This document shows, piece by piece, positions 9,328 to 62,896 of a stretch of 64,000 bases of DNA. Both the position numbers and the translations under genes were made by a program. The stretch covers positions 15,979-79,978 of the forward strand of contig JAQUQV010000002.1 in assembly GCA_028715905.1 (NCBI GenBank), read 5' to 3'. How positions within the stretch are numbered: position 1 is the first letter of the stretch; each line of letters begins with the position of its first letter. The notes under the pieces were generated by a model that was given only the letters and a program-made list of their open reading frames with translations, made no database searches and was not told where the DNA came from. This DNA is from Kiritimatiellia bacterium (GTDB taxonomy: Bacteria; Verrucomicrobiota; Kiritimatiellia; JAAZAB01).

Positions 9328-9356
9328 TTGACATGATCCCAAAAATATCATAGTAT
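9328..9356 (+). promoter_or_regulatory. Near-consensus sigma70 promoter (TTGACA-N17-TAGTAT) driving the 9518/10216 cassette
   Basis: An exact TTGACA, a 17-bp spacer and TAGTAT sit in an AT-rich gap, about 160 nt upstream of the 9518 ATG. Confidence 0.55.
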
Positions 9357-9410
9357 TTTTTTATTGCCTGAATTTTGCGCAGAAGTTTAAATAAGACCGG
9401 CGGATCGCCA

Positions 9411-9446
9411 GCCGGGAAAGTTTTGGATGGCGGCGCTGCCGCCTTA
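9411..9446 (+). repeat. 36-bp conserved motif copy 1 (GCCGGGAAAnTTTyGGATGGCGGC-N2-3-GCCGCCTT)
   Basis: Near-identical copies at 19418..19455 and 38195..38228; all contain a GGCGGC/GCCGCC hairpin. Confidence 0.5.
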
Positions 9447-9517
9447 GGGTATTATCGGCAGGCGGCTTTCCGCCGCGCGGAAGCATACGAAAAACTCAAA
9501 CAAAGGAACAACCAGAC

Positions 9518-27588: not shown

Positions 27589-27665
27589 AAAAATCTTGCA
27601 ATTTATAAATTAAGTGATATTTTTAGTTTTAAAGAGCTATGGAGCACCATGGCGCATGAAATAAA

Positions 27666-33598: not shown

Positions 33599-36500
33599 GG
33601 ATGAAAGTTATGAGCAAATCGTTTTTGGTGGCTTTATTTTTACCGCTTACGGTTATAACCGGTTTGACGAACGTAGAGACACTGATTGTGCCCAGAGCGA
33701 CAGCGCCTGAAATTGACGGGCAAATCAAAGGTGAAGAATGGCGCGGCAGCGCAAAGGCGGGCCTGTTTGTGCATTTAGGAGGTTCCAGTAATGCCGCGTC
33801 CGACCAGACGGAAGCATTCATTATGCGTGATTGCGAGAATATTTACGTTGCGTTACTCTGCCATGGTTACAATCCAACGCAGGATCCGGCCGACGATGAA
33901 ACGGAATTCCATTTTAACGAGAACATGGAGCTCCAATCTACCACACGCCAGTTTATTATGAACTCGCGAGGCGTCCGCGCCGCCAAGAAAGCAGCATCCG
34001 CAATCGGAAGTAATAACACATGGGCCGTGGAAATGGCCATTCCGCTTGCCGATTTGAAAATTAAGCCGGATGAGGGAACGATGTTTCGCGGGCATTTTTG
34101 CAGAAAAGTGTCGTCTAAGAAAGAATACAGCTCTTGGCCGCCGATCTTGTCCGACAGTTTTCACGATTTGTACAATTCGGCCCGTTTTATTTTCGGCTCA
34201 TATCAGGCAGTAATCCTGCAAAAGTTGGGAATATTAATCAGAGAAACCGAAAAGATATATGTCGCGGATGCCATGAATGCCGACAGGGACGCCATTTTGA
34301 ATGAGGCGCGCAGATTGGAGTCAAAATTCAAGGCAAAGGCTGATTTATCCCCGGAAGAATTTCATGAGGCAATAGATGAAGTGATTAAAGTTGAGGATCA
34401 AAAGGCGGCGATGGATCGTCGGATTTTCAGGGAACTCTCCTTGCGTCACCTGGAGAGTTTGATTGAAAGCACGGGCAATTTGTCGGCATCCGATGAAATA
34501 GCAAAAGAAAAATCCGGGCTTTTGGATGATATGCAAAAACTGGCGGCGGCGGTTAAAATAAAGGGAGGCCTGTCAATAAGTGAATTTTACGCGACAAACA
34601 CAAAGGTATCGGAATTGGAAGATCGCAAAGCGGCCTTAGATGTTAAACTCGTACGCCGGAGTTTTGGCCCCATGGCGGCTGCGCCCGGGGCGAAACAGCC
34701 TGATGGAAATATCTTTTTGACGTCTGACGCGGCGCGGGGCGGCTATGACTTGCCTGAAGTCTGGACAAATCGTCAGATTCTGGGAAAGGATTTCTGGTTT
34801 GACATATGTTATTATCCGTCATTTTGGCAGAAGGTCGGCTTGGAAGATGAGCCCTTTATAAAGGATTCGTTGATGCGGATCGGGAGCTCTCCGATCATCA
34901 GAGAATATCCTTATAAGATTACTAATTTTGAATACGATTTTTTTGACCCACAGTCCGTGATATATCGTGCCCTGCATGAAACAGACAGGCCGTTCGCCGT
35001 GTACGGAGAGATTGGGCCTCTGGATATCGCTCCGTCGGTTTGCCGTCGTTTTTTAAAGGAGTACGGCGACAGGTTTGCCGGTTTCATGGCCGATGAATGT
35101 TTCGGCAACAAAGCTCGCGAAAGATGCTGGATGGCAATGGGGTTGCCATATCCGCGCACCCGGCAGGAAGCATTTTTGGGATTTACGGCCGCCTATTTCA
35201 ATTCAACCATTAATACCAATATTAATATGTTTTATTTCAGGAGTTGGGCGCTTACCCATCTGGTATTCCGCCCCTGGACATCCTGCGGGACGGCAACCTA
35301 TCTGGATCACTGGATATTGGAGCTTGGGGCCCCGTACAGCGGCGAGGAACTCGGCGCTTCAGGAATTGTATGCACGCCCATGCAGCTCGCGTTCTCGCGC
35401 GGGGCGGCGCGGCAATACAGAAAGCCGTGGCGGACATATCTGGCGCTATATGCCGCCGGAGTCGCGGGCGATTCGGCAATGAGCTATTCGGGGTGCCTTT
35501 CTCCGGAATGCCGGAGGGGAACAAAATTCGGGCCATACAGCGGAACATCTCTCTCGCTGCAACGGCGGCAATTGTTCGCCGCGTACATGTCGGGCGTCAA
35601 TATGATCAGAGATGAACACGATCTCGAACCATATCCTGGTAAAAACGAACGTCTCTCAACTTATGTGGCGCTTTATGATTGGCGCCATATCGATAAAACC
35701 GATCCATTGGTGAAAGTTATGAGAGATAAACACTATTATCTGTCGCCGGCCGGCGAAATCCGTAAAGAATTATATGATAATATTGTCAAAAAACATGACC
35801 GCGGCATGGCTTATACGCCTGTGGGTTTGATCTTTGATCGATATCATGGATTCATACTGAATTACGCAAGGAATAGAATCTTGGGGATTTTGCCCTACAC
35901 GGAAGGCGATTATATGATGCGAGCCGTTAATAACTCCTTGTTTCCCTGGGAGGACAATGTCAGAAGTGAAGGACATACGATGGTGACTTCTCCTTATGGC
36001 GATATGTTTGATGTGCTTACGAACAATGCCAGACTGGAGACTTTGAAGACGTATAGAACTCTGTTATTGGTAGGTAATGTTGATTTGGACAAATTGTTTG
36101 CGCAGCGCCTGCTGGACTACGTCAGCGAGGGCGGCACATTGTTGATAAATGCCGCACAGATCAGCGACGGAACATTGCCCGAGGCATTTCTTGGATGCAA
36201 AATATTGAACGAGCGCGGCGAAGGTCGAATATGGTACAGCCTGTTGGATGGAGAGGCGGCAGCCGAGCGGAAATCGTTCGGATATCGGCGACTGAAACCG
36301 ATAAGCGCAACCCCTTTGATCATTCGCGCGGACGGCGATAACAAAAAAGACGCGTTGGCGACTATGAACGAATACGGCAAGGGCCGCGTGATCCTGACCG
36401 CGCCTGATTACTTGTATGAAGTTGGAAGTCGCAATCGGATGTTGAATATGTTCGGCTACCTGATGGGACATCTGCGGGATGAATTGTTGCCGGTCCGGTG

Positions 36501-36792
36501 GGAAGGAAATGTGGAAGTTTTGGTGAACAGGAGCAGCAGGGGTTGGGTGGTAACGCTGATCAACAATGAGGGGGTGCTCAAAAAGGGTGGACAAAAGGAA
36601 ATGATTGATGATACAAAAAAGGCCGATGTGCGGGTAACATTGAACAAGGCGGCCGGCGGCCCGGAGGTGAAGAAAATCGCGGAATGGGTCAAGGGAGAAA
36701 AGCTGGAGATGCGGAAAACGGGTAATGAGGCCGAGGTCAAAATAACGGTTCCGCCGGGCGATGTTCGTATCCTGGAGTTCCGGATGAATTGA
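33595..36792 (+). CDS. Large secreted protein (1065 aa) with an N-terminal CBM9/DOMON-like carbohydrate-binding module and a GH42-domain-M-like segment
   Basis: Signal peptide. ATAPEIDGQIKGEEWRGS matches the CBM9-like motif. LLLVGNVDLDKLFAQRLLDYVSEGGTLLINA is amidotransferase-like. 4-nt overlap with the upstream gene. Confidence 0.45.
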   Translation: MRMKVMSKSFLVALFLPLTVITGLTNVETLIVPRATAPEIDGQIKGEEWRGSAKAGLFVHLGGSSNAASDQTEAFIMRDCENIYVALLCHGYNPTQDPADDETEFHFNENMELQSTTRQFIMNSRGVRAAKKAASAIGSNNTWAVEMAIPLADLKIKPDEGTMFRGHFCRKVSSKKEYSSWPPILSDSFHDLYNSARFIFGSYQAVILQKLGILIRETEKIYVADAMNADRDAILNEARRLESKFKAKADLSPEEFHEAIDEVIKVEDQKAAMDRRIFRELSLRHLESLIESTGNLSASDEIAKEKSGLLDDMQKLAAAVKIKGGLSISEFYATNTKVSELEDRKAALDVKLVRRSFGPMAAAPGAKQPDGNIFLTSDAARGGYDLPEVWTNRQILGKDFWFDICYYPSFWQKVGLEDEPFIKDSLMRIGSSPIIREYPYKITNFEYDFFDPQSVIYRALHETDRPFAVYGEIGPLDIAPSVCRRFLKEYGDRFAGFMADECFGNKARERCWMAMGLPYPRTRQEAFLGFTAAYFNSTINTNINMFYFRSWALTHLVFRPWTSCGTATYLDHWILELGAPYSGEELGASGIVCTPMQLAFSRGAARQYRKPWRTYLALYAAGVAGDSAMSYSGCLSPECRRGTKFGPYSGTSLSLQRRQLFAAYMSGVNMIRDEHDLEPYPGKNERLSTYVALYDWRHIDKTDPLVKVMRDKHYYLSPAGEIRKELYDNIVKKHDRGMAYTPVGLIFDRYHGFILNYARNRILGILPYTEGDYMMRAVNNSLFPWEDNVRSEGHTMVTSPYGDMFDVLTNNARLETLKTYRTLLLVGNVDLDKLFAQRLLDYVSEGGTLLINAAQISDGTLPEAFLGCKILNERGEGRIWYSLLDGEAAAERKSFGYRRLKPISATPLIIRADGDNKKDALATMNEYGKGRVILTAPDYLYEVGSRNRMLNMFGYLMGHLRDELLPVRWEGNVEVLVNRSSRGWVVTLINNEGVLKKGGQKEMIDDTKKADVRVTLNKAAGGPEVKKIAEWVKGEKLEMRKTGNEAEVKITVPPGDVRILEFRMN

Positions 36793-36806
36793 CATAAAGA
36801 TGGAGG

Positions 36807-38111
36807 TTGACGATGAAAAGATTATTACTGGTTGCGATGGGACTTTTGGTTGCGGCGGCCTGTCCGGGGGCCATGCATTACGTGGTGACGAACGGGACGC
36901 CGGGATGGACCGGCGCTGTTGATCCCTACACCAACTGGGCCACGGCCGGAACAAATATTATTGACGTGGTCAATGCCGCCATGACCAACGACGAACCAAG
37001 ACTGGTGCTAGTCTCCAACGGCACGTATTATCTGACCAACCAGGTGCTGATAACCAACGCCCTGACAATCCGCGGGGTCAAAGGCCGGGAGGCAACGATT
37101 GTGGATGGAGGATACGGGATGCCGACGAACACCTATGGGGGATGTTTTTATCTCTTATCGGGTGGCGGTGCGAAGACGTTGGATGGGTTTACGATTACTA
37201 ACGGATGTGCAACTTCAGGCGGTGGTGTTTATATGGCCAACGATGTCAGTAATACTGTTAAAAATTGTCGGATAACAGGGTGCGTGGCTACCAATACGTT
37301 TGGCAGTCTGGCCAGCGGGGGTGGGGCTTATGTCTGGCGTGGAGTTATGACCAATTGTGAAGTTATTGGGAACATTAACTATAACTGCTATGGCGGAGGA
37401 ATTCTTCTGCGACGCGGTATAGTTGCGAGCTGTGTCGTTGCTCAAAACACGGTATACCAGGGAAAAACAGGGAATGAAGTTACGGGCGGCGGAATACATA
37501 CTTTTGAATCTACTAGTTCCATTAATAATTGTGAAATTTATAGTAATGAAGTTGTCGGCACCTATCTAATAGGCAGCGGCGTGGCCTTGAAGGACAATGC
37601 GGTTTTGCGTAATTCGCTAATCTATGGCAACATGGGCCAGCATGCAGTGTCTATCTATAATACAGGGGGAAAAGTTCAGAATTGCACAATAGTAGGTAAT
37701 AAGGCTGGAGGAATTTATCTTTATGCTGCTTCTACATATACCGGTTGTATTGAAAATGTCGTCAGTTATTTCAATGTGGGATCGTCTGATAGTAATGTTT
37801 ATTTTAATTCCAACGGCAAAGGTTCTTACCAAATAATCAACAGCTGCATTGCGCCCACTAACACCTTTCCGACCAGTGGAATCGAGGGATATTATTACGC
37901 CGGTAATATTGAGTCCGATCCACAGCTCGCGGATAAGGACAATAATAATTTTCGACTGGCGCAGGATTCTCCCTGCGTCAATGCCGGCACGAACCAGGAA
38001 TGGATGACGAACGCGGTTGATCTGGACGGCGCCGCGCGCATCCGCTACGGCCGGGTGGACATGGGCGCCTATGAACGCATCTATCACGGCGTCGTCTACG
38101 GCGTGCGATAA
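36807..38111 (+). CDS. Secreted right-handed parallel beta-helix repeat protein with a choice-of-anchor-Q-type C-terminus
   Basis: Signal peptide. G/N/T-rich beta-helix rungs (NCxIxGN repeats). C-terminal DLDGAARIRYGRVDMGAYE motif. Confidence 0.6.
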   Translation: MTMKRLLLVAMGLLVAAACPGAMHYVVTNGTPGWTGAVDPYTNWATAGTNIIDVVNAAMTNDEPRLVLVSNGTYYLTNQVLITNALTIRGVKGREATIVDGGYGMPTNTYGGCFYLLSGGGAKTLDGFTITNGCATSGGGVYMANDVSNTVKNCRITGCVATNTFGSLASGGGAYVWRGVMTNCEVIGNINYNCYGGGILLRRGIVASCVVAQNTVYQGKTGNEVTGGGIHTFESTSSINNCEIYSNEVVGTYLIGSGVALKDNAVLRNSLIYGNMGQHAVSIYNTGGKVQNCTIVGNKAGGIYLYAASTYTGCIENVVSYFNVGSSDSNVYFNSNGKGSYQIINSCIAPTNTFPTSGIEGYYYAGNIESDPQLADKDNNNFRLAQDSPCVNAGTNQEWMTNAVDLDGAARIRYGRVDMGAYERIYHGVVYGVR

Positions 38112-40709: not shown

Positions 40710-42092
40710 ATGAAAAAAAACATACTTATCATAGGCGCCGGCGGGGTGGCGCATGTTGCGGCCCACAAGGCAGCCATGCATAACGATTTGCTCGGCGATA
40801 TCTGCATCGCGTCGCGCACGCAATCCAAATGCGATGCGATCATCCAGAGCGTTAAGAGGAAAAATCATGTCAAGGACAAGTCAAAAAAGCTTTATTCCCG
40901 CCGGCTTGACGCGCTTGACGTTTCCGCGACCATGCGGTTGATCAAGGCCGCCCGGGCCGGGATTGTCATCAACCTTGGCAATGCGTTTGTCAATATGTCG
41001 GTTCTGGAGGCATGCCTGGGAACCGGCGCGGTTTACCTGGATACCGCCATTCACGAGGAACCTGACAAAGTCTGCGAAAACCCGCCCTGGTACGCCAATT
41101 ACGAATGGAAGCGCAAAGCCCGCTGCCGGAAAAATGGTCTGACCGCCATTCTCGGCGTCGGTTTTGATCCGGGCGTGGTCAACGCCTATTGTGCCCTGGC
41201 GGCGAAACATTATTTTGACAAAATTGACACAATTGACATCATGGATGTCAATGCCGGCCGCCACGGCAAATATTTTGCCACCAATTTTGACCCGGAGATT
41301 AATTTCCGCGAGTTTATCAAAGTCTGGACATGGATTGACCGGCGCTGGAAACAATATCCCACGCACTCCGTCAAGCGCGTTTACGATTTCCCGGTCGTCG
41401 GTCCCCAGCCGATTTACCTGAACGGGCACGACGAACTGCATTCGCTTTCCAGAAACATTGACGCCAACAGCATCCGGTTCTGGATGGGATTCGGCGACCA
41501 CTACATCAATGTTTTTACCGTGCTCCGCACGCTCGGCTTGCTTTCACATCTGCCGGTAACGCTCGGCGCGGGGCAAAAAGTCGTGCCGTTGAAAGTTGTC
41601 AAGGCGCTTTTGCCGGACCCGAAGACGCTCGCGCCCAGCTACACCGGCAAAACCTGTATTGGCAATTTTGTCAGGGGATGGAAAAACGGGAAGAAACGGG
41701 AGGTTTTCATTTACCAGGTTTCGGACCATAAGAAATGCTATCGCGAGGTAGAATCCCAGGGCATCAGTTACACGGCCGGCGTGCCGCCGGTGGCCGCGGC
41801 CATGCTCGTGGCCAGGGGCGTCTGGGACCCGAAAACCATGGTGAACGTGGAAGAACTGAATCCCGATCCCTTCATTGCGATACTTGACAAGATCGGCCTG
41901 CCCACGGACGTCAGGGAAATCAAGCCCGGAAGCAGGGATTCGTTTAACGGCACAGTCGGCAAGATAGAAAATGAACTTGAGAAATCTACCGCAACGGTTA
42001 CCGTCTCTGCCGCCAACCCGATGATTGCCGTGGGGCCTGTTTCCGGAACCGCGCAACAAAAGAAGAAAAAAATATACGGATTCGGCAGATAA
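40710..42092 (+). CDS. Carboxynorspermidine synthase/dehydrogenase (saccharopine dehydrogenase family)
   Basis: N-terminal Rossmann motif MKKNILIIGAGGVAHV and full-length similarity to CANSDH-type saccharopine-dehydrogenase-like enzymes; the usual partner of nspC. Confidence 0.75.
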   Translation: MKKNILIIGAGGVAHVAAHKAAMHNDLLGDICIASRTQSKCDAIIQSVKRKNHVKDKSKKLYSRRLDALDVSATMRLIKAARAGIVINLGNAFVNMSVLEACLGTGAVYLDTAIHEEPDKVCENPPWYANYEWKRKARCRKNGLTAILGVGFDPGVVNAYCALAAKHYFDKIDTIDIMDVNAGRHGKYFATNFDPEINFREFIKVWTWIDRRWKQYPTHSVKRVYDFPVVGPQPIYLNGHDELHSLSRNIDANSIRFWMGFGDHYINVFTVLRTLGLLSHLPVTLGAGQKVVPLKVVKALLPDPKTLAPSYTGKTCIGNFVRGWKNGKKREVFIYQVSDHKKCYREVESQGISYTAGVPPVAAAMLVARGVWDPKTMVNVEELNPDPFIAILDKIGLPTDVREIKPGSRDSFNGTVGKIENELEKSTATVTVSAANPMIAVGPVSGTAQQKKKKIYGFGR

Positions 42093-42209
42093 AAACCGCG
42101 CGATATTCTAACGTGATGGAATATAAAGAGCGCCTTAATCAACTTTGGGGTTGTCAAAGTTGAGGTGAAAAGAAAAGTCAGGCAGTTGACCAACTGAGGA
42201 ATAGTGGAT

Positions 42210-42235
42210 TTACAGGATAAAAAAGTATCCTGTAA
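42210..42235 (+). repeat. Perfect 10-bp inverted repeat TTACAGGATA-N6-TATCCTGTAA
   Basis: Seen directly in the sequence. It lies between the CANSDH gene and a degraded ORF. Confidence 0.35.
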
Positions 42236-42594
42236 TCCTGTCGATTCTTTTCTGCGGATTGCTAAATAGCCGCGCTGATGTATCCGCGCCGCCGGCGTTC
42301 ATACGGGATTACCGGTTCTGGAAAATGTTCAAGCGCTTTGACAAAATCACCGGTCTCAAATCCCGGAATGCGATGCTTGATTTTGACGCGCAGGATTTCC
42401 TGGAAAATCGCCAGCATGGCCGGTTTTAAGCAGGTCAACGGTCTGTTCAAACTGGCGCTGGAGCCGTTCCGGATGCAGGGCGCTGTATAGGAAGAATATT
42501 CATGACTATGGACGCATGACGTTAAATCTAATTCCCCCTTGTCAAATAATTATTCCCTGCGGATTTGCGGGGGGATAAAATTATAAAAATATTA

Positions 42595-42622
42595 TTTACA
42601 ACAATATACAATAATGTATATT
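42595..42622 (+). promoter_or_regulatory. Promoter (TTTACA-N16-TATATT) with an embedded operator palindrome ATATACA-ATAA-TGTATAT for the abiE operon
   Basis: A perfect 7-bp inverted repeat (42604..42621) overlaps the -10 element. It ends 2 nt before the first ATG, which suggests autoregulation and a possibly leaderless mRNA. Confidence 0.4.
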
Positions 42623-42623
42623 A

Positions 42624-43271
42624 ATGATTATGAGATTTGGAGAGCTTATTAAGGCTGTCAGGGAGATGCCGCATTTTGACCTGGCAGCGATTGTGCAACT
42701 CGCGGGAGAGCCGAGGCAATCCTTGCGCATGCAGTTGTCCCGCCTGATCAGACAGCGAAAAATTATTTCCCTTCGGCGCGGCATGTATGTGTTGGGCGAG
42801 CTGTACCGGAAGGTGAATCCGAATCCGGCAGTAATGGCGAACCGGATTTACACACCATCGTACCTGAGTTTTCACTGGGCGCTGGGATATTACGGAGTGA
42901 TTCCGGAGAAGGTTGTTTTGTTCACAAGCGCAACCGCGCGTGTGCCACGGTTATTTAAGAATGAGTTCGGAAGTTTTCAATACAAACATATCAAACCGGA
43001 TTGTTTTACCGGTTACCAAACCGTAGACATAGATGGCCAAAAGGTTCTGATCGCCGTTCCCGAGAAAGCCCTGCTGGATCTCTGGCATATTGAAAACAGG
43101 GAGTGGACAACAGAACGTATGGCCAGCATGCGATTCCAGAACTTTGAAATCGTGTCACGGAAGAAGTTGGAAAAATATGCGGAATTGTATCAATCGTCCC
43201 GTCTTCTCCGGGCTGTCAAGAATTGGCGGGTATATGTTAAAGCGGAGATGGAAGGGGCAAAGGAATTATGA
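42624..43271 (+). CDS. abiEi: AbiEi-type antitoxin/transcriptional regulator (type IV TA / abortive infection)
   Basis: An N-terminal winged-helix-like region upstream of, and overlapping by 4 nt, an AbiEii-family gene; size 215 aa. Confidence 0.65.
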   Translation: MIMRFGELIKAVREMPHFDLAAIVQLAGEPRQSLRMQLSRLIRQRKIISLRRGMYVLGELYRKVNPNPAVMANRIYTPSYLSFHWALGYYGVIPEKVVLFTSATARVPRLFKNEFGSFQYKHIKPDCFTGYQTVDIDGQKVLIAVPEKALLDLWHIENREWTTERMASMRFQNFEIVSRKKLEKYAELYQSSRLLRAVKNWRVYVKAEMEGAKEL

Positions 43272-44074
43272 AAGACGAGGTTATCAGTCTGACCAGAAAT
43301 ATCGCAGATCCCGCCCAGCGCCTTAATGTGCTTCGGGAATATCTGCAGGTGCTGGTAATGCGTTCGTTTCATGAAAGCGAAGCTTTCCAATGCATCGCTT
43401 TTGTCGGCGGCACGGCGTTGAGATTTTTATACGGATTGCCGAGATTTTCTGAGGATTTGGATTTCTCGCTTGATTCCAAAGATAACTATTTCCCCGAGAA
43501 ATGGTTGAGCAAAACAAAGCGGGATCTTCAGCTTGCCAGCCTCGACGCCACGGTTACTTTGAATGACCGCAAGACAGTCCACGTAGCTTGGATCAAGATT
43601 GGCGAAGTTCTCAAAGATGTTGGACTGGCCGCAATGGTCCAACAGAAACTATCAATCAAACTGGAGATTGATACGCGCCCCCCGGGCGGGGCGCAGACCC
43701 GGAATCAGGTTATTGAACGTCATCGGATGTTTGTGGTCAGATGTTATGACCTGCCGTCGCTTATGGCCGGCAAACTGCACGCGTTGATTACGCGCCAGCA
43801 TTGCAAGGGCAGGGACTGGTATGACTTTCTCTGGTACCGGGCGCAACGGCCGCAGCCTGAGCCAAATCTTTTGTTGTTGCAGAATGCGCTGGATCAGACT
43901 GAGGGCAAAAGCGCATTTAAAAGCGGCCAGTGGAAAGATCTCGTGCGCGACAAGATCGGCAAATTGAATATCAACCAGGTGAGGCAAGATATTCGTCCGT
44001 TCCTGGAAGAGCAGAGAGACGTGGATTTGATTACAAAAGAAAATCTGGAATCCCTGCTGAAACCCATCGGCTGA
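43268..44074 (+). CDS. abiEii: AbiEii/AbiGii-family nucleotidyltransferase toxin (DUF1814)
   Basis: Motif FVGGTALRFLYGLPRFSEDLDF typical of DUF1814 nucleotidyltransferases; 268 aa; ATGA overlap with abiEi. Confidence 0.75.
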   Translation: MKDEVISLTRNIADPAQRLNVLREYLQVLVMRSFHESEAFQCIAFVGGTALRFLYGLPRFSEDLDFSLDSKDNYFPEKWLSKTKRDLQLASLDATVTLNDRKTVHVAWIKIGEVLKDVGLAAMVQQKLSIKLEIDTRPPGGAQTRNQVIERHRMFVVRCYDLPSLMAGKLHALITRQHCKGRDWYDFLWYRAQRPQPEPNLLLLQNALDQTEGKSAFKSGQWKDLVRDKIGKLNINQVRQDIRPFLEEQRDVDLITKENLESLLKPIG

Positions 44075-48524: not shown

Positions 48525-49589
48525 TCAGTCGTAATAAACCGCGCGATTAACAAGCTCGTGCTGCATGGCAACGACCTGAATGCCTTCTTCGGCGCTCATG
48601 CCCTGAAGTGAATCATTTCCCCGGATGGCTTGCAGAAAGCGGTTTTGGACTTCCAGATTGCCGTAGAGATGCCGGCCGCGGAAATACTGGATGCCGCCGG
48701 TTAAAACTCCCTGCCAGTGCCGGACGGTTGCCAGCAGGCTTGTGCGCACAATGTCCCTGGCCGCGTGAACGCCGTCATTGGGCAGATAGACGTAAATATC
48801 CCGCCAGACGTCAATATCCGCCGTGCCGTTTTCACCTACCACGGTTACGTGCCATTCCGTCAAGCTGGACTCAAAGTTGATATGGAGATAAACGGGGAAA
48901 TCATCCCCGGCTTGTTCTGAAGCATTGGAACAAGCCCGGTATTCGGCGGTTACCAGGCGGGGTGTGTTGCGATGCTCCCGGCTCTTCCATACTGTCGCGT
49001 TTAAAAACGAGCATTGCCCGCCGCTCAACCACCGGAACAGGTAATAAAAATGGGGCGATTCGTCAAAAAACAATCCCAAGGGAAGTTTGTCGCACCAGGC
49101 AGGAATATTTCTGCGGTGGTTGCACAATTGTACGCCATAGGCGGCCTGGATTTTGCCGATGCGTCCTCGGGCGAGGTCATGCTGATATTTTTTTGCCGCC
49201 CCACTGAACTGAAAATTGTGGACGACAGCCATGACAAGTTTTTTTTCTTTGGCGAGGGCTGCCAGTTCCTGCCCCTGTTCCACGGTCAGGGTCATTGGCT
49301 TTTCGGTCAGAACATGCTTGCCCGCCAGGAGCGACTGCTTCGCGATTTCATAATGCGCGTGCGGAATGGTCCCGATGATGACCGCGTCGGCCGAGGCCTG
49401 CCAGTCAGCCGAAAAATCAATATTGGCCGCAAAATGCGGAACGCCAAAACGCCGGGCGGTTTCCCGGGTGCGTTGCTCATTGTCGGAAACAATCCCGGCC
49501 AGCTCAAACCCGGGATTCAATTTCAACGCCGGCAAATGCCGGTGGTTCACGACCCAGCCCCCGCCGATGCTTAATATTTTTACGGCCAT
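48525..49589 (-). CDS. Gfo/Idh/MocA-family NAD(P)-dependent oxidoreductase
   Basis: N-terminal Rossmann region and the EKP motif (VLTEKPM). Confidence 0.8.
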   Translation of the reverse strand: MAVKILSIGGGWVVNHRHLPALKLNPGFELAGIVSDNEQRTRETARRFGVPHFAANIDFSADWQASADAVIIGTIPHAHYEIAKQSLLAGKHVLTEKPMTLTVEQGQELAALAKEKKLVMAVVHNFQFSGAAKKYQHDLARGRIGKIQAAYGVQLCNHRRNIPAWCDKLPLGLFFDESPHFYYLFRWLSGGQCSFLNATVWKSREHRNTPRLVTAEYRACSNASEQAGDDFPVYLHINFESSLTEWHVTVVGENGTADIDVWRDIYVYLPNDGVHAARDIVRTSLLATVRHWQGVLTGGIQYFRGRHLYGNLEVQNRFLQAIRGNDSLQGMSAEEGIQVVAMQHELVNRAVYYD

Positions 49590-49731
49590 CCGTATTTACC
49601 TGTTTTTTAAACGCATTGCCATTTATGCAAAGATATATTATAAAAGATTACGATACAACATTATTGTGCGCAACATCCCTGCAAGATGCCCCGGAATGAG
49701 GTATGTTGTGCATTCGTGCCTTGGGGTGGCA

Positions 49732-51129
49732 ATGAAATTATTATTCATTGATTTATTGAAATATATCTCCGACCAGCAAGGTGTTTATTCGCTTATTTCA
49801 TGTTTAAAACATGGCGGCATGGATGTGAATTTTTTTGCCGGCACCAATGTTGAAAAATTAATTGCAAGGGTTGTCAAATACCAGCCGGATGTCTTGTTGT
49901 ATTCCTCTTTCACCAGCTCGTTGCCGCGTTATATTGAATTTGACAGACAGGTGAAACGGCGCTGGCGCGGTTTTTCAATCATTGGAGGTCCCGGGCCGAC
50001 TTTTGACTGGCAGTGCATTCAAAATTCAACCATTGATGCGGCCTGTGTTGGCGAAGGCGAGTATGCTTTGCTGGCGTTTCTGCGTAACAATTTTCAGCCG
50101 TCTGGCAATATCTTTCTGTGTGGAGAATCCGGCCCGCGGTCTTTCGCGGAATTTGCGGATTTGGATGCTCTGCCTTTGCCGGATCGGACACAGGTTTATG
50201 CCGAGAATGGACTCTTGAAGGAGATGCCCTCCAAGCAGTTTATTTCCGGGCGCGGTTGTCCTTTTAACTGCACCTATTGTTTCAACCACCAGTACAGAGC
50301 CATGTTCAAGGGGTGCGGTCAATATGTCCGAAAAAAAAGCGTGGACTATCTGTTTGCAGAGCTTGCTCAGGTGAAGCAACGTTACGGATTGCAAAATGTG
50401 GCTTTCAGCGACGACACTTTCATTATTGACAAAAAATGGTTTGCCGAGTTCTGCGCGCGATTTCCAAAAGAGGTCGGATTGACTTATAACTGTTCGGTGC
50501 GCGCCAATTTAGTGGATGAAGATGTTGCCCGGATGCTCTCCGAGAGCGGTTGTGCCGGCGTAATGTGGAGTATAGAAACTGCCGATATAAAATTACGCAA
50601 TGAAGTTCTGCGGCGTGCCATCAGCGACGAGCAGATTGAGCTGACCGCTTATTGGTTGAGCCGGTACAAAGTCCCTTTCCGCATAGGCAATATGATTGGT
50701 TTGCCGGGGGAGTCTATTGATCAGATGCTGCAAACAATCCGCGCCAATATTAACGCCAGGCCGGCCTTGGCGTATGCTACGGTTTTTGTGCCGTTCCCGG
50801 GATTGAGCCTCTCGCAATATGCGGTTGAACACGGGTACTATAACCCTGACACTCCATTGCCGAAAAATTGTTTCACGGAAAGTCCATTAAATTACGATCC
50901 AGCAGAAAAAGACATGATTCGGCGCTTAATGTGCTGTTTCCCGTTTTTTGTGCGTTTTCCGGTGCTCTTCAATTGCAAATATCTGCGCCGGGTCTGCCTG
51001 GGAATTCCTTATTGGCTGATAAAAATTATTTTTGGTGTTTATTTTCCTTATGCCCTTTCGCGTGCTTACATGCTTAAAGTCGGCCTGTGGTTCAAAATGC
51101 GAATGGCTGTTCGTTTTTTGCGCGGTTGA
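49732..51129 (+). CDS. B12-binding-domain radical SAM protein
   Basis: An N-terminal cobalamin-binding-like domain followed by the CPFNCTYC radical SAM cluster motif. Confidence 0.75.
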   Translation: MKLLFIDLLKYISDQQGVYSLISCLKHGGMDVNFFAGTNVEKLIARVVKYQPDVLLYSSFTSSLPRYIEFDRQVKRRWRGFSIIGGPGPTFDWQCIQNSTIDAACVGEGEYALLAFLRNNFQPSGNIFLCGESGPRSFAEFADLDALPLPDRTQVYAENGLLKEMPSKQFISGRGCPFNCTYCFNHQYRAMFKGCGQYVRKKSVDYLFAELAQVKQRYGLQNVAFSDDTFIIDKKWFAEFCARFPKEVGLTYNCSVRANLVDEDVARMLSESGCAGVMWSIETADIKLRNEVLRRAISDEQIELTAYWLSRYKVPFRIGNMIGLPGESIDQMLQTIRANINARPALAYATVFVPFPGLSLSQYAVEHGYYNPDTPLPKNCFTESPLNYDPAEKDMIRRLMCCFPFFVRFPVLFNCKYLRRVCLGIPYWLIKIIFGVYFPYALSRAYMLKVGLWFKMRMAVRFLRG

Positions 51130-58390: not shown

Positions 58391-59092
58391 TTAAAGGCGC
58401 TGCTCTTCGCCCTCCAATGCCGCCGGATGCGCGGCCGGGGGACTGTTTATCTTTTTATACGCGCTGAAATATTCAAAACGCAGGCAGCATTTCAGCCGCC
58501 CGCACATGCCGTTGATTGATGTCTGGCGCATGGGCAGGCCCTGGTTCTTTGCCAGGCTCATGTGCACGTTTTCAAACTTCTGCAGCCAGCTCTTGCAGCA
58601 CATGACCCGCCCGCAGGAAGCCATGCCGCCGCGCAGGGCGGCCGCGTCGCGCGCGCCGATCTGATTCATCTCCACCCGGGCATGGAGTTCGTCGGCCAGC
58701 GCCTGTACCAGTTGGCGGTAGTCAATTCTTTCCTCGGCGGTGAACATAACCATCAGGCGGGAACGGTCAAACGTGTAGTGGACCCGGATCAGCCGCAGGG
58801 GGAGATTGCCGGCGGCGACTTTTTCCTGGCAGATTCGCCATGCGTTTTTGGATAAGAGGATGTTTTCATGCGCCACGGCCTGGTCCTGCAGGGTTGCCCG
58901 TCTCATCACCATGGGGGCGGCGCCGCTTGTCTCCGCGGCGCCGTTGCGGGTCTCCATGATCACGCGTCCGAATTCCAGGTGATTTTCCTTTTGAACGATG
59001 CATTCGTCGCCCTTGTTAATGGCGAGGACCGGGGAGACGTTGCATTGCCACAAATGAATGTCTCCGCAGTCAACGTGAAGCAGACGAAACAT
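58391..59092 (-). CDS. PSP1 C-terminal domain protein (RicT/YaaT-like)
   Basis: A PSP1 domain with a CGRVMCC cysteine motif, immediately downstream of holB as in many bacteria. Confidence 0.7.
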   Translation of the reverse strand: MFRLLHVDCGDIHLWQCNVSPVLAINKGDECIVQKENHLEFGRVIMETRNGAAETSGAAPMVMRRATLQDQAVAHENILLSKNAWRICQEKVAAGNLPLRLIRVHYTFDRSRLMVMFTAEERIDYRQLVQALADELHARVEMNQIGARDAAALRGGMASCGRVMCCKSWLQKFENVHMSLAKNQGLPMRQTSINGMCGRLKCCLRFEYFSAYKKINSPPAAHPAALEGEEQRL

Positions 59093-60113
59093 TTTCCCTT
59101 TCCCCGCAGGGGCGGCATGCGGCATTGGTGTTGGCAGCCAGTTGCAGAAACGCCCTTTCTATAACCATGTTTTCGGGCAGATATTGGTCAAGGCATGCCT
59201 GCGCTTTCTCAACCGCGGCTATGTTATTCATTGCCTGCGGATATGTCAATCCGGATGCCGCCGCCCGGAGCCGGTCGGCATCGGAACGGTAAAACAGCAG
59301 GCTGTCATCATGCAGGCCGCTGGCGCAAATGAGCAAATCCCTCTGCCACATAATCAACAGGTGCAATACGTGGCGGCGGCGCTCGCGATAAACGGCGGCT
59401 GTTCTTCCCAGGCCTATTTCTTCCAGGTCTTCGTTCTGTTCGCCGCTTACCTGGGCCAGGCGCAGCCATTCGGCCGTCTCGTGCTCGGCCTGTTCCCGTA
59501 TTTCTTTAAGCAGGGCGAGCATTTCTTTCGCCTGGAGCAGTCCGGCCGCAGTCCCGCCGCTTGCCGCGCCGGCCGCGATCTTGGCCACGACCGGCCGCAA
59601 TTCGTCATTAGAATCAATGGCGCAATCGCTCATTGCGACCCGCTGGCAGCGGGAAGCGATGGTGGGCAGAAGGGCTTCCGGCTGATTGGAAAGCAAAAGA
59701 AAAATACTGCGCGGGGGCGGCTCTTCCAGCGTTTTCAGCAGTTTGTTCGCCGCCTCGTTGTTCATCCGTTCGGCGTCGCTGAACACAACGGCCTTCCAGC
59801 CGCCTTCAAAGGTTGTTTGAAAAGTCTGCCTGATCACTTCCTCAATCTGTTCCACCAGGATGCCGCGTGATTTTTTGATCGGCTCAATCCGGATAATATC
59901 AGGATGAATGCGTTTTGAAACCCGCCGGCAATTGTTGCAGTTTCCGCAGGGGCGTTCTGTTTTCCCGGCGCAAAAAAGCATCTGCAGGATGCTTTCCGCC
60001 AGTTGTCCGGCATTGCCGCGCGGGTCGCCGACGATCAGGTAGGCATGCCCCATCCGGCCGCCGGCAAAACTATCCTGAAATTGTTTCAGTTTATTAACGA
60101 CTTCACCGCTCAT
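59070..60113 (-). CDS. holB: DNA polymerase III delta-prime subunit
   Basis: AAA+ clamp-loader fold with the zinc module CGNCNNC and an SRC-like region. Confidence 0.8.
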   Translation of the reverse strand: MSGEVVNKLKQFQDSFAGGRMGHAYLIVGDPRGNAGQLAESILQMLFCAGKTERPCGNCNNCRRVSKRIHPDIIRIEPIKKSRGILVEQIEEVIRQTFQTTFEGGWKAVVFSDAERMNNEAANKLLKTLEEPPPRSIFLLLSNQPEALLPTIASRCQRVAMSDCAIDSNDELRPVVAKIAAGAASGGTAAGLLQAKEMLALLKEIREQAEHETAEWLRLAQVSGEQNEDLEEIGLGRTAAVYRERRRHVLHLLIMWQRDLLICASGLHDDSLLFYRSDADRLRAAASGLTYPQAMNNIAAVEKAQACLDQYLPENMVIERAFLQLAANTNAACRPCGERENVSSASR

Positions 60114-60460
60114 CCTGAATTCTTCCGCTCGTTTTGCTTTTTATATTCCCTGAAGCTATCAACCAACTGCCTGAATGAGACAGGCTTGAATTTCTCAAAG
60201 CTTTCCCGGTCCACATAAACAAAGTCGTATTTCACATCCGATTGCACATGGTTGATACGGCCCCAAGGACAGAGAGGATCCCCTTCTTCTCTTTGACTTT
60301 GGCGGACAGTCGCTTGACTACAGCATCGGCGACACGGCTGATGATCGTTTGCACGAATATGATGACACATGCAAGGCAGAGGTAGAACAGCCATTTTTCG
60401 GGTTCCGTGACCAACTTCTTGAATAGCTCGCCATCCATGATGTTTTTTCCTCATCCCCAA
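60110..60460 (-). pseudogene. Possible frameshifted small membrane-protein gene, split across two frames
   Basis: The 60232..60438 frame encodes a TM-containing N-terminus. The 60110..60460 frame encodes a hydrophilic C-terminus (VKYDFVYVDRESFEKFKP...). The frames switch around 60255..60290. Confidence 0.3.
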
Positions 60461-60467
60461 CCATTGC

Positions 60468-60545
60468 TTAACAGAATCTTTTGATCTGACAATTTGCGAT
60501 TGAGCCTTTGATCGGTCAAATTGACCGATGTCATTATCAAATTAT
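60468..60545 (+). repeat. 78-bp direct repeat R1; partner R2 at 61275..61352
   Basis: Identical 19-bp and 23-bp ends (ttaacagaatcttttgatc ... attgaccgatgtcattatcaaat) with a divergent palindromic centre. Confidence 0.55.
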
Positions 60546-60661
60546 TTGAGGATATAGTAGGCATTCGTCATGCAGAGTCAACGGCAAACTACATCCTGAC
60601 GGCGTGTGGTAATACACCCAGAAGGGCATGTGGGGAACGAAGCCGCCGCCATCTGTGGCCT

Positions 60662-60937
60662 TTAGCTGGGTTTCATTTGTCCCGTTAAATATTTGTGAAT
60701 TATACTTGAAACTAATGTTTGATAAGGTAAGCCTTCTTGAATAGCCCGTAGCTTTATATTGTTATAGTCCCAATCGGACATGCGGATGTTGATTTTTTTG
60801 ATCTTATTCAAAGCATTCCGGGCATGGGTTTGATATTTTTTTATTTCTTCCGCCATATCGGGAACAGCAACCCATTCGCCATTTTCAATTTCATTTTCCA
60901 GCGCCGCTTCTTCTTTAGTGAGCAGTAATTTTTTCAT
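60662..60937 (-). CDS. brnA: BrnA-type (CopG-like) antitoxin
   Basis: C-terminal NIRMSDWDYNNIKLRAIQEGLPYQTLVSSIIHKYL matches the BrnA family; 4-nt overlap with brnT. Confidence 0.7.
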   Translation of the reverse strand: MKKLLLTKEEAALENEIENGEWVAVPDMAEEIKKYQTHARNALNKIKKINIRMSDWDYNNIKLRAIQEGLPYQTLVSSIIHKYLTGQMKPS

Positions 60938-61221
60938 TTTTTGTCTCCAATATATTTTTTAGTTGACGCGCGGCTGGGATATATTGTTTTTAAAAAACAT
61001 GTTCCATCATGTTCTTTCACAAAGGGCACATTAAATGCATATCCTTCGCGTTCAACCACCAATATTTCTTGATTTGGTTTCTTCGGGTGCTTTAAAATTG
61101 CCCGCAAATAGCCTTCGTCTATAAGATAAATTATTTCCTCAAATGTAATGTTGCGGTTTTCTGCGAGCCATTTATTTTTCTCGGGACTCCAATTGAATTT
61201 CATGTGCTGAATATAGGACAA
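60934..61221 (-). CDS. brnT: BrnT-type (DUF497) ribonuclease toxin
   Basis: N-terminal MKFNWSPEKNKWLAENRNITFEE matches the BrnT MKFxWDxxKNxxNxxKHGVSFEE pattern. Confidence 0.75.
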   Translation of the reverse strand: MSYIQHMKFNWSPEKNKWLAENRNITFEEIIYLIDEGYLRAILKHPKKPNQEILVVEREGYAFNVPFVKEHDGTCFLKTIYPSRASTKKYIGDKK

Positions 61222-61274
61222 TGCCTATCTTTTGTCAATATCATTGTTTATCTGGTCTGGTCCGCACAGATTGA

Positions 61275-61352
61275 TTAACAGAATCTTTTGATCCGGCAAC
61301 TTGCTATTGAACCTCCGCCACGGGCGGATTGACCGATGTCATTATCAAATCA
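61275..61352 (+). repeat. 78-bp direct repeat R2
   Basis: See R1 above. It lies 54 nt upstream of the brnT start. Confidence 0.55.
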
Positions 61353-61362
61353 TTTATTTCTT

Positions 61363-61680
61363 TCACTCTTCCAATTCCAGGGCAAACCGGATAGCTGCCT
61401 GGACTTCCATCATCTTTGATTGAACAAGCGTTGTGATGACGTTCCCGAGTTTGTTTTTTGAAACAGTTTGAAAATGGTCGCAATTTACAGCACATTCTCT
61501 GGGCATTCCATCTTCCCGGGAGAGATGAACTTCGCTTGGGATGTCCCGTACGGTTGACGTGATGGGCGCTACGGTGACTTCATTCAGATATTCCATGACC
61601 GAATTCCGCGTCAAAATTAACACGGGACGGTTCTTGTCGGGGTGTTGGAATCTGTACCATCGGGCCTCGCCTCTTTTCAC
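61363..61680 (-). CDS. MazF/PemK-family endoribonuclease toxin
   Basis: RPVLILT...VTVAPITST...AVNCDHFQTVSK matches the PemK/MazF fold signature; 105 aa. Confidence 0.7.
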   Translation of the reverse strand: MKRGEARWYRFQHPDKNRPVLILTRNSVMEYLNEVTVAPITSTVRDIPSEVHLSREDGMPRECAVNCDHFQTVSKNKLGNVITTLVQSKMMEVQAAIRFALELEE

Positions 61681-61910
61681 TTTTCACCCCAGGCCTGCTC
61701 TTTTGTCCAAACATCGAATTCTCCCTTTGCAACCGGTTTGCCGGCATATCCCAGCCGGTGTTTTTGTTCCAATTGCCGCGCCTGCAACCGGCGAATTGCC
61801 AGACGAAGGGCTTCGCGAGTAAAGGCTGATCGGGTGGTCTTTGTTTCTCTGGCAACGCGATCAACTGTTTTGACGAGATTATCGTCCAGGGTCATTTGTA
61901 TGGTTCTCAT
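61677..61910 (-). CDS. Ribbon-helix-helix (CopG/MazE-like) antitoxin
   Basis: N-terminal MRTIQMTLDDNLVKTVDRVARETKTTRSAFTREALRLAI RHH motif; 4-nt overlap with the toxin gene. Confidence 0.65.
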   Translation of the reverse strand: MRTIQMTLDDNLVKTVDRVARETKTTRSAFTREALRLAIRRLQARQLEQKHRLGYAGKPVAKGEFDVWTKEQAWGEK

Positions 61911-61981
61911 GACTATATACCTTTATGTTGAGACTTATAGCTATAATACCCATTATTGATTTATTGTCCATGGCATGAGTC

Positions 61982-62005
61982 GCTTGCAAAAGTCTACTTT
62001 TGCAA
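61982..62005. promoter_or_regulatory. Perfect palindrome CTTGCAAAAG-TCTA-CTTTTGCAAG upstream of the RHH-MazF operon; candidate operator
   Basis: A 10-bp perfect inverted repeat about 70 nt upstream of the antitoxin start. Confidence 0.4.
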
Positions 62006-62008
62006 GCA

Positions 62009-62113
62009 GAATCCAGAAGTCAGAAGACAGTAGTCAGAACGACAGCACATGCCAAGATGCTTAATATCAGCGACTTGCGCTTATTCTGAATTCTGACTCC
62101 TGACTGAATTCCA
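62009..62113. repeat. Imperfect inverted repeat built from GTCAGAA/CTGAC units (arms of about 32 bp, spacer of about 45 bp)
   Basis: Left arm gaatccagaagtcagaagacagtagtcagaa; right arm ttctgaattctgactcctgactgaattc. Confidence 0.4.
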
Positions 62114-62245
62114 GCAAAACAGGAGTTTTGCAATTAACTCGCATATTTTCAATTTTTTTGAGCCAACGCCTCCTTCACCGTTTGCAAACCAGCTGCGGGA
62201 CGGCGATAATTCGACAGGTATCCGGACAGAACGGACGATTCTAAC

Positions 62246-62896
62246 TCACCGCTCAATGACATTTTTCGCCGCCTTCCAGATATCCGTTTGAACTTTTGTC
62301 ACCGGCCGCCCGGCGTTCACAATGCAAAACCGCTCCGGATTTTTTTTCGCCAGATCAAGATAACCTTCGCGGACGCGCTGATGGAAGGCCATGTTCTCGC
62401 TTTCAATCCGGTCTTTTTCGGTTCCCTGCCGCCGGTTGCGTTGGTGCAGTCTTTTGAATCCGGCGCGCAGGTCCAGATCAAGGAGAATGGTGAGGTCGGG
62501 CGCGAGTTTCTGGACCGCGAAGGCGTTGATGGCGGCGATTAATTTCAGGCTGCATCCGCGGGCGTATCCCTGATAGGCTGCCGTTGAATCCGAAAACCGG
62601 TCGCAAACGACGTGTTTTCCGAGCCGTAGAGCCGGCAAAATGACGGTTTGCACAAGCTGGGCGCGGCTGGCCATGAAAAGCAGGAGTTCCGTCCGGGGAC
62701 ACATTTTCTCGCTTCCGGCCTTGCTGCTCAGCAGGCGGCGGATAACTTCGCCGATGGACGTGCCGCCAGGTTCGCGGACTTCCGCAACTTCATGGCCGGC
62801 CGTGCGCAGTTTTTCCGCCAGGAGCCGCGCATGGGTGGATTTGCCGCTGCCTTCAATGCCTTCAAACGTTATCAATCTGCCGCGTTTGGATTTCAT
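62246..62896 (-). CDS. tmk: Thymidylate kinase
   Basis: P-loop FEGIEGSGKST and LID-region homology; 216 aa. Confidence 0.9.
   Translation of the reverse strand: MKSKRGRLITFEGIEGSGKSTHARLLAEKLRTAGHEVAEVREPGGTSIGEVIRRLLSSKAGSEKMCPRTELLLFMASRAQLVQTVILPALRLGKHVVCDRFSDSTAAYQGYARGCSLKLIAAINAFAVQKLAPDLTILLDLDLRAGFKRLHQRNRRQGTEKDRIESENMAFHQRVREGYLDLAKKNPERFCIVNAGRPVTKVQTDIWKAAKNVIER

Follow-up and report, generated by a model that had tools for sequence, protein, structure and literature searches.

A low-GC islet between tmk and holB of a Kiritimatiellia bacterium carries two predicted toxin-antitoxin modules and copies of a dispersed promoter-leader repeat

An insertion at the tmk-holB junction

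What is the low-GC DNA that separates tmk from holB in a Kiritimatiellia bacterium, and how did it come to lie there? Adjacent tmk and holB genes are common in bacteria, for example in E. coli. In the 64,000-nt stretch that we analyzed (hereafter the window; contig JAQUQV010000002.1 of assembly GCA_028715905.1, positions 15,979 to 79,978), 2,132 bp lie between the tmk stop and the holB start (window 60114-62245, minus strand), a segment referred to below as the islet. It carries two predicted toxin-antitoxin (TA) modules of type II, namely a ribbon-helix-helix (RHH)-MazF pair and a BrnT-like toxin with a CopG-type antitoxin, together with copies of a 131-nt promoter-leader repeat that we call the element. 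The upstream flank of the islet is tmk, encoding dTMP kinase (62246-62896, minus strand; PF02223 Thymidylate_kin, 1.9e-53), and the downstream flank is holB, encoding the DNA polymerase III delta' protein (59070-60113, minus strand; PF13177 DNA_pol3_delta2, 3.7e-46). Farther out, cysS lies upstream of tmk, and PSP1, aroQ, and accB lie downstream of holB. The GC content of the insert is 43.6%, compared with 54.5% for the rest of the window, and this is the lowest-GC 2.1-kb stretch in the 64 kb; the BrnT-like module alone has a GC content of 36%. An earlier reading of this DNA, made from the sequence alone (the original prediction), had described a low-GC insert of 2.1 kb between holB and tmk. 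Its size, position, and low GC were confirmed, and its value of about 40 percent is corrected here to 43.6%.

The islet sequence was 100% identical across three independent Logan assemblies, and a fourth assembly spanned its holB-proximal part. HolB is identical to MDD5482223.1 and Tmk to MDD5482229.1, both from a Kiritimatiellia bacterium metagenome-assembled genome (MAG) at NCBI, where the Tmk entry is named dTMP kinase. Because the independent Logan assemblies are identical and the proteins are present in the NCBI MAG, an assembly artefact was ruled out.

A genome scan with HolB gave one usable relative, an uncultured Verrucomicrobiota MAG (L005) whose HolB is 66% identical. The gene order in this relative is cysS-tmk-holB-PSP1-aroQ-accB-accC, and its tmk (7319-8011) overlaps holB. 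When L005 was compared with the window by blastn, homology extended to the tmk stop (62246) and resumed at approximately 60107, with nothing between. The sole further variant in the HolB 90% cluster (L044, from P0335; JGI 3300037067, a 1,716-bp contig) matches the window at 98.0% identity along 1,426 bp. Its homology ends at window position 60193, and upstream of this point it carries a truncated KilA-N open reading frame (ORF; PF04383, 1.3e-6). Because a 98%-identical strain thus carries different DNA upstream of 60193, the site is variable even among near-identical strains. Broad conservation of the insert was therefore not observed among the relatives compared, as L005 has none and L044 differs, and the island proved to be polymorphic among strains.

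In L044 itself (positions 1-370), the truncated KilA-N gene and a hairpin-rich spacer lie directly upstream of the 80 nt before holB that the two strains have in common. The counterpart of this region in the window consists of element copy B and a truncated gene for a protein with two transmembrane segments (2-TM).

The 2.1-kb stretch is an insertion of foreign composition, and the tmk-holB junction is probably a strain-variable hot spot that accumulated horizontally acquired DNA. One could suppose instead that the insert is ancestral and was deleted in L005, since only one distant relative without it is available. Such a history would have to accommodate the overlapping tmk and holB of L005, a tight arrangement of genes that commonly adjoin in bacteria, and a GC content 11 points under that of the host. 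It would also have to accommodate the 82-92% DNA identity of both modules to copies in unrelated loci, and the difference at this site in a 98%-identical strain. We consider ancestral presence extremely improbable and effectively excluded.

No integrase, transposase, or attC site was found in the islet. An integrase was also judged absent from the flanks because the synteny with L005 runs on at both sides, and no IntI integrase was found nearby in the cysS-tmk and holB-PSP1-aroQ-accB flanks, the remaining window not having been scanned exhaustively. Among 72,556 plasmids and 50,697 phages searched by blastn, none matched the islet, and four pattern scans of viral contigs gave either no match or chance word matches only. 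An att-like 17-nt direct repeat (60107-60123 and 62078-62094) was considered and rejected, as its local alignment score of 36 is not significant against shuffled sequences (27.6 ± 5.0, maximum 51). The acquisition by recombination or a mobile vehicle that had been proposed for the island agrees with the observed insertion and polymorphism, but no vehicle in the form of an integrase, transposase, or attC site could be found.

Read along the coding strand, the islet starts with a unique 269-nt palindromic spacer (62245-61977), which is followed by the RHH-MazF module (61976-61362), a partial copy A of the element (61355-61270), and the BrnT-like module (61249-60652). Next come 65 nt of unique sequence (60651-60587), a full copy B of the element (60586-60456), the truncated gene (60438-60245), and a final segment of 131 nt (60244-60114), the last 80 nt of which are the part common to L044. 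The islet appears to be a patchwork of minimal modules acquired separately, rather than a single element.

Two toxin-antitoxin modules

The tmk-proximal module encodes a 77-aa RHH (CopG-type) antitoxin (61677-61910, minus strand) and, downstream of it, a 105-aa MazF/PemK endoribonuclease toxin with a GTG start (61363-61680, minus strand). The antitoxin matches PF01402 RHH_1 over residues 7-41 (27.3 bits versus a cutoff of 20.5), and the toxin matches PF02452 PemK_toxin over residues 2-99 (61.5 bits versus 23.1, E 1e-16), so that both Pfam assignments of the original prediction stand above their cutoffs. The toxin aligns over 91 residues to MazF3 of M. tuberculosis (5UCT; E 1.5e-14), and MazF4 and the S. 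aureus and B. subtilis-type MazF proteins also match it (2e-5 to 4e-4). It has more than 7,900 homologs; among those listed, all 120 contain PF02452 and many are named MazF mRNA interferase. The RHH antitoxin falls below the NCBIfam MazE model (NF050104; 16 bits versus a cutoff of 65). The stop of the antitoxin gene and the start of mazF overlap by 4 nt (GTGA), and the pair is kept in two metagenome loci, L042 and L043.

Upstream of the RHH gene lies a promoter-like site, TGGACA-16-TATTAT (61943-61970, minus strand), which is overlapped by the perfect palindrome TTATAGCTATAA (61935-61946). Both the palindrome and the promoter hexamers are conserved in L042 and L043. A palindrome overlapping the promoter is the usual arrangement for antitoxin autorepression, and TTATAGCTATAA is likely to be the operator, a putative assignment made from sequence. 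By analogy with such systems, MazF would cleave RNA independently of the ribosome, and the RHH antitoxin, translationally coupled to it, would bind and neutralize the toxin; the RHH protein would also repress its own operon at TTATAGCTATAA over the -10 box. The module resembles MazEF-type systems (nearest solved toxin MazF3, PDB 5UCT/5CCA) in its PemK_toxin domain, upstream antitoxin, 4-nt overlap, and palindrome over the promoter, and differs from them in its antitoxin, which is of the RHH_1 (CopG) type and scores under the MazE model cutoff.

In its DNA sequence, the module (61362-61976) shares 86.5% identity with L042 and 82% with L043, where the flanks are unrelated. The L042 copy has an AIR-synthase-like gene on one side and a HEPN gene on the other, and the L043 copy adjoins a beta-lactamase-like gene. 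The block common to these loci extends from 6 nt ahead of the -35 box to the stop codon.

In the second module the toxin gene comes first. It encodes a divergent BrnT-like (DUF497/RelE-fold) toxin of 89 aa (60934-61203, minus strand), and the antitoxin gene that follows (60662-60937, minus strand) encodes a 91-aa CopG_antitoxin-type protein with a C-terminal RHH domain. The two genes overlap by ATGA, and both the gene order and the 4-nt overlap are kept in the related loci L014 and L015. The two complete type II TA pairs with 4-nt overlaps that had been described from the sequence are thus both present. We placed the start of the toxin at ATG 61203 (89 aa) and not at the listed TTG 61221; its homologs are 87-89 aa long.

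The toxin itself scores under all Pfam and NCBIfam thresholds (BrnT_toxin, PF04365, 12.5 bits versus 34.5, E 0.18; DUF4258, E 0.041). It has 87 database relatives, some of which are named 'DUF497 family' (JGI) or 'toxin' (NCBI), and at E ≤ 0.01 BrnT_toxin is matched by 23 of 43 relatives and DUF4258 by 10 of 43. An AlphaFold2 model of the toxin (pLDDT 95.3) was used for a Foldseek search, in which Brucella BrnT 3U97 ranked first (E 7.7e-4, prob 1.00, TM-score 0.65/0.73, root-mean-square deviation 2.6 Å), followed by HigB2 and RelE. A single-sequence search of the PDB with the same protein was discarded, having returned only spurious summed matches to designed Armadillo repeats. Where the original prediction had called a BrnT DUF497 toxin, the closest fold and more than half of the relatives agree, whereas the protein as such fails the Pfam threshold.

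A profile of the toxin family shows an N-terminal F-x-W-x3-K-N...F-E-E motif that aligns with the DUF497-type toxin 7VD7. In this alignment, which is not structure-based, the K-H of 'RKHG' in 7VD7 stands opposite e-R of the toxin family, and R17 is invariant. A Lys-His pair (with Glu) has been reported to be needed for the RNase activity of BrnT-type toxins (PMC10714953), and this dyad aligns to Asn-Arg in the toxin described here. Given the Arg in place of His, the chemistry of the toxin may differ.

The antitoxin scores 19 bits against PF12441 CopG_antitoxin (cutoff 28). Searched against BrnA models, it has no match to PF14384 and reaches 16.8 bits versus 60 with NF047399. Among its relatives at E ≤ 0.01, 37 of 38 match CopG_antitoxin (best 1e-6) and one matches BrnA_antitoxin (E 0.0049); their names in the source databases are 'antitoxin' or 'CopG/RHH family protein'. 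The C-terminal half of the protein superposes on the CopG fold (prob 0.97, TM-score on the target 0.75). The BrnA antitoxin originally named here is thus replaced by an RHH protein that, judged by its relatives, is of the CopG_antitoxin type.

The promoter-like site of this module, TTGACA-17-TATATT (61210-61238, minus strand), has 11 of 12 consensus matches and is conserved in L014, L015, and L016. Because its -10 hexamer ends 6 nt before ATG 61203, a near-leaderless mRNA is predicted. The module (60652-61249) has a DNA identity of 91% to L014 (GCA_030652805.1), 92% to L016 (a Verrucomicrobiota MAG), and 80% to L015, again with unrelated flanks, and its borders fall approximately 10 nt before the -35 box and approximately 12 nt after the stop codon.

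Judged by its relatives and predicted fold, the second pair appears to match known TA families. As far as sequence comparison can tell, the toxin belongs to a divergent BrnT-like clade and the antitoxin lies outside the BrnA family. The closest known counterpart is BrnT/BrnA of Brucella abortus (3U97; Heaton et al. 2012, as cited in PMC7180214 and PMC10714953). Shared with it are a toxin gene in first position, a small RelE-fold toxin, and an antitoxin with a C-terminal RHH domain, and the toxin has the N-terminal F-x-W-x(3)-K-N motif in common with 7VD7. Unlike in Brucella, the toxin is only 14% identical to 3U97 and lies under the Pfam cutoff, and the antitoxin groups, by its relatives, with PF12441 CopG_antitoxin instead of PF14384. 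By analogy, the pair would work like BrnTA, in which the toxin is encoded first and acts as an RNase of the RelE fold, and the antitoxin ends in an RHH domain. The antitoxin would hold this RNase in check through N-terminal helices that bind the toxin, and its C-terminal RHH domain would bind DNA and repress the promoter.

In all four Logan contigs (L001-L004), the BrnT-like toxin gene was left uncalled by the gene finder. Since it is uncalled there and also scores under the Pfam and NCBIfam thresholds, the clade is probably under-annotated, and its antitoxins look like orphans.

The 131-nt element and the debris around the modules

The full-length copy B of the element (60456-60586, minus strand; nhmmer 9e-43) precedes the truncated 2-TM gene. 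Copy A (61270-61355, minus strand; nhmmer 8.9e-19) is partial; it covers model positions 41-125, so that the leader is present and the promoter missing. This copy starts 8 nt past the MazF stop, and 12 nt after its end comes the start of the BrnT-like module. The two copies are 82.6% identical over 86 nt. The element is marked by the direct repeats D1/D2, and an exact 19-mer and an exact 22-mer each occur twice in the window, both times in the islet. Copy B contains a promoter-like sequence of sigma-70-like type, TTGACT-16-TACTAT (60581-60554), with 9 of 12 matches to the consensus, a consensus match only. The leader of approximately 100 nt holds the hairpin ATCGGTCAAtTTGACCGAT (60511-60529), i.e., ATCGGTCAA-n-TTGACCGAT, and the conserved 3' end of the element is GATCAAAAGATTCTGTTAAgCAATGGTTGG, ending ...GATCAAAAGATTCTGTTAATCAATGGTTGG.

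Further copies were sought with one exact 19-mer, which gave 23 metagenome loci, and nhmmer then upheld a dozen copies in ten loci. Because all of them were found through this 19-mer, the sample is biased toward near-identical copies, and the metagenome copies may stem from different genomes. Copy B matches those in L019 (two), L020, L023/L030, L025, L026, L032, L034, and L039 with 84-91% identity over 124-138 nt; fragments of the element occur in L024 and L035. The flanks of the copies are unrelated on both sides, and alignment with the flanks delimits the 131-nt unit. For 10 of the 11 further copies, the conserved 3' end is followed after 4-18 nt by the start of an ORF that carries its own ribosome-binding site and is not the same from copy to copy, the exception being a split 5' half in L039. 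The genes that follow encode GNAT, CrcB, thioredoxin-like, and Zn-ribbon proteins, a DUF6082-like membrane protein, small membrane proteins, and unknowns. The element was found neither in the viral contigs scanned nor in the 72,556 plasmids and 50,697 phages.

Some of these loci have features of their own. L019 (Ga0247841_10034205; 2082-5149) holds, in order, an element, a GNAT gene, a hicB/hicA-like pair, a second element, small ORFs, and an addiction-module antitoxin gene with a ParE/RelE-like toxin gene, and this TA-rich islet adjoins a radical-SAM housekeeping gene. GNAT was scanned against Pfam, and the other names, such as hicBA-like and ParE/RelE-like, go by sequence resemblance. In L030 (Ga0247840_10002591; 1259-9891), the copy of the element (2076-2206) belongs to an island that also holds a tyrosine integrase (8605-9891), a DEAD-box-like helicase, and an excisionase-like helix-turn-helix gene; this copy and tRNA-Arg(ccg) are approximately 740 nt apart. 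In L039 (1100-1342), another repeat of approximately 180-240 nt, unrelated to the element, is inserted in the middle of the element copy; the same inserted repeat occurs at 82-84% identity in L023/L030 (L023 8507-8685), downstream of the cargo gene of the element. In L025, a genuine group II intron (1641-3441; RF02001, 129 bits, with a reverse-transcriptase ORF) lies downstream of the 145-aa cargo gene.

What kind of sequence the element might be was approached by elimination. Rfam searches of the islet (E ≤ 10) and of nine loci that carry the element (E ≤ 0.1) gave no match to the element. A structured RNA was rejected, as RNAalifold on nine copies gave one long-range stem with 0 compensatory pairs and left the mismatches of the central hairpin uncompensated. 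A leader peptide was likewise rejected, since a 27-codon ORF starting from ATGACATCGG lacks its ATG in four copies and, in L026, has its frame broken by an insertion of 31 nt. The ATG that is conserved in CAATGGTT was rejected as a start codon as well, being in frame with the cargo in just 2 of 10 loci. Nor is the element a miniature inverted-repeat transposable element (MITE), for its ends, TTGACTYTGCATGACG... and ...CTGTTAATCAATGGTTGG, are not complementary, and it has no terminal inverted repeats and no flank duplication. It is like the promoter-bearing Correia/ERIC MITEs in being approximately 130 nt long, dispersed, intergenic, and able in principle to give an adjacent gene a promoter, and unlike them in that its two ends are unrelated, without terminal inverted repeats or an evident target-site duplication.

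On present sequence evidence, the element best fits the concept of putative mobile promoters (PMPs; Matus-Garcia, Nijveen, and van Passel 2012; PMC3575422), whose definition asks for at least 80% identity over at least 50 nt upstream of genes that are not homologous. Its copies have the identity required by that definition. As in PMPs, there is a promoter-like -35/-10 pair, no Rfam match, and no established mechanism of mobilization. Unlike in PMPs, the conserved block adds a leader of approximately 100 nt that ends just before the ribosome-binding site of each gene, and the element recurs inside TA-rich islets, in copies that may come from different genomes.

The remainder of the islet consists of debris. 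At the tmk border, the unique spacer of 269 nt (61977-62245) contains nested palindromes (inverted repeats I1, I4, I6, and I13; fold z = -4.9), with outer arms at 61977-62003 and 62114-62140 and a perfect 12-bp hairpin at 61982-62007; no second copy was found in the window or the fetched loci. Its motif AGTCAGAA recurs inverted at 62086-62105. The repeats and palindromes originally placed at the borders of the island are accordingly palindromes at the tmk border (61977-62140), while the main repeat, the 131-nt element in two copies, is internal. On the opposite (plus) strand, positions 61982-62056 match Rfam RF01998 (group-II-D1D4-1) with 21.2 bits, under the gathering score of 35, and the spacer might possibly be a degenerate group II intron fragment on that strand. 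We did not retain this candidate, given the sub-threshold score and no similarity to the genuine intron in L025.

The truncated gene (60245-60438, minus strand; ORF as read 60232-60438, 68 aa) corresponds to the first 64 codons, at the N-terminal end, of a family of 2-TM proteins with 190-280 aa. With the 68-aa ORF as query, exhaustive HMMER searching turned up six relatives (91-280 aa), matched only via their first 58-63 residues, and tblastn of these relatives against the window placed residues 1-64 at 60438-60247 and found no further homology in any frame. Because homologs match the N-terminal residues only and nothing follows downstream, the ORF is a 5' fragment; what had been taken for a frameshifted small membrane gene is a truncated remnant.

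Next to holB, the 80-nt segment common to L044 (60114-60193, minus strand), at whose end the 98%-identical alignment stops, reads KPVSFRQLVD(S/G)FREYK(K/E)QNER(K/R)NSG* over 26 codons, with its TGA overlapping the holB ATG (ATGA). Window and L044 differ in this frame by five synonymous and three non-synonymous changes. The alignment suggests that a gene formerly stood ahead of holB and was lost, and that the segment is its C-terminal tail.

Elsewhere in the window, a type IV AbiE TA/abortive-infection pair was found at 42624-44074 (plus strand), within a low-GC patch (42001-43500, GC 0.435). AbiEi (215 aa) was identified by PADLOC (6.9e-49) and has no Pfam match, and AbiEii (268 aa) matches PF08843 (2.6e-27) and PADLOC (1.1e-71). 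Additional low-GC patches (0.41-0.47) lie at 10601-11300, 27201-28500, 30801-38100 (as several patches), and 49401-50300; that at 27201-28500 comprises intergenic sequence plus the beginning of a GntR/LacI-like regulator gene after mreB.

Assembly, maintenance, and consequences of the islet

The best explanation, and in our judgment a quite likely one, is a hot spot that holds two intact, self-promoted TA modules amid debris, the neighboring cargo having decayed. The debris consists of the truncated 2-TM gene, the tail of a lost gene, the palindromic spacer, and one and a half copies of the 131-nt repeat. Each module would have arrived separately as a minimal unit of approximately 600 bp running from promoter to stop codon, and the modules would persist because their loss is costly (addiction), while the cargo beside them decayed. 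Several points weigh against this account. The comparison draws on one moderately distant relative (L005) and one close strain (L044), and the L044 contig covers just 370 nt upstream of holB and so says nothing on the TA modules farther upstream. In addition, the second toxin is under the Pfam threshold, with Arg at the position of the catalytic His of characterized BrnT-type toxins.

The main competing account of the assembly would make the islet a decayed array from a cassette system, with the 131-nt element as the junction, whether site-specific or homology-driven. Cargo units of ribosome-binding site and ORF, TA pairs included, would be set behind a standard promoter-leader, and recombination between copies would reshuffle the arrays. 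Several observations speak for it: both copies in the window lie in the islet and none elsewhere in the 64 kb, the BrnT-like module starts 12 nt after copy A, different genes follow the 3' end at a distance of 4-18 nt in nearly all further copies, L019 repeats the architecture with two elements and apparent TA pairs (by resemblance), and one copy lies within the integrase-bearing island beside tRNA-Arg in L030. Set against these are the lack of a recombinase near the islet, the lack of inverted termini and of attC-type R''/R' boxes, and the occurrence of the TA modules elsewhere without the element; the copies, moreover, all come from one exact 19-mer, which biases them to near-identical ones, and are not tied to one genome. 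We hold this account to be possible but unlikely. A related and somewhat more doubtful idea is that the element represents a portable platform for gene expression, so far undescribed, of a Kiritimatiellia lineage, a promoter with a leader of approximately 100 nt that marks cargo-swap junctions. On this idea the element perhaps mediates the swaps, via recombination between copies or by an unidentified recombinase, in an integron-like cassette logic without attC. An actual integrase-less integron array (CALIN), with direct repeats of approximately 95 nt (the leader part of the element) as attC sites, is superficially suggested by the small promoter-proximal cassettes, the TA cargo, and the species-specific conserved repeats between them, which resemble chromosomal integron arrays. 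A script found no RYYYAAC...GTTRRRY pair 50-200 nt apart on either strand of 60000-62400, however, and DNA folding showed the repeats as separate small hairpins and not as one long imperfect hairpin; furthermore, the 5' part of the repeats is promoter-like, and the TA modules have promoter-like sites of their own. On the box search and the folding, the attC/integron reading was rejected as effectively excluded, and we give it hardly any weight.

A different question is why the modules were kept. Instead of being selfish addiction modules, they could form a small defense islet, maintained mainly for abortive infection against phages. RNase TA systems, those of the MazF type among them, are known from some bacteria to abort phage infection, another low-GC patch of the window holds the AbiEi/AbiEii pair, and the element cargo elsewhere includes the DUF6082-like membrane protein and other islet-type genes. 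None of the five islet proteins matched a PADLOC defense model (E ≤ 0.01), though, and the islet has no phage-sensing component; we consider defense improbable as the main reason for retention. We keep to the separately acquired, self-promoted modules at a variable site as our preferred explanation.

The insert parts two essential replication genes that are normally translationally coupled, and the expression of holB may consequently depend on foreign promoters here. All islet genes are co-oriented with tmk and holB, and no terminator-like site was found on the minus (coding) strand of 60000-62350. Transcription of holB-PSP1 would still be provided by read-through and from the promoter of element copy B.

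The islet is in itself ordinary, since TA islets are common between housekeeping genes and the two toxins are members of known superfamilies. What it offers are clean boundaries for two TA modules moving as minimal units of approximately 600 bp, from promoter to stop codon, and a case of module movement, with DNA identities of 80-92%, between bacteria of the PVC (Planctomycetes-Verrucomicrobia-Chlamydiae) group (Verrucomicrobiota, Kiritimatiellia, and a Lentisphaerota-named antitoxin homolog). It also points to a sizeable BrnT-like clade that Pfam and NCBIfam miss, with CopG_antitoxin-type partners and Arg for the usual His. The dispersed promoter-leader repeat, which precedes unrelated accessory genes and recurs in TA-rich islets, is mildly interesting as a mobile-promoter-like sequence. 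If this repeat is a recombination junction or a common regulatory leader, the way in which such islets are assembled and expressed in a little-studied phylum would be explained by it.

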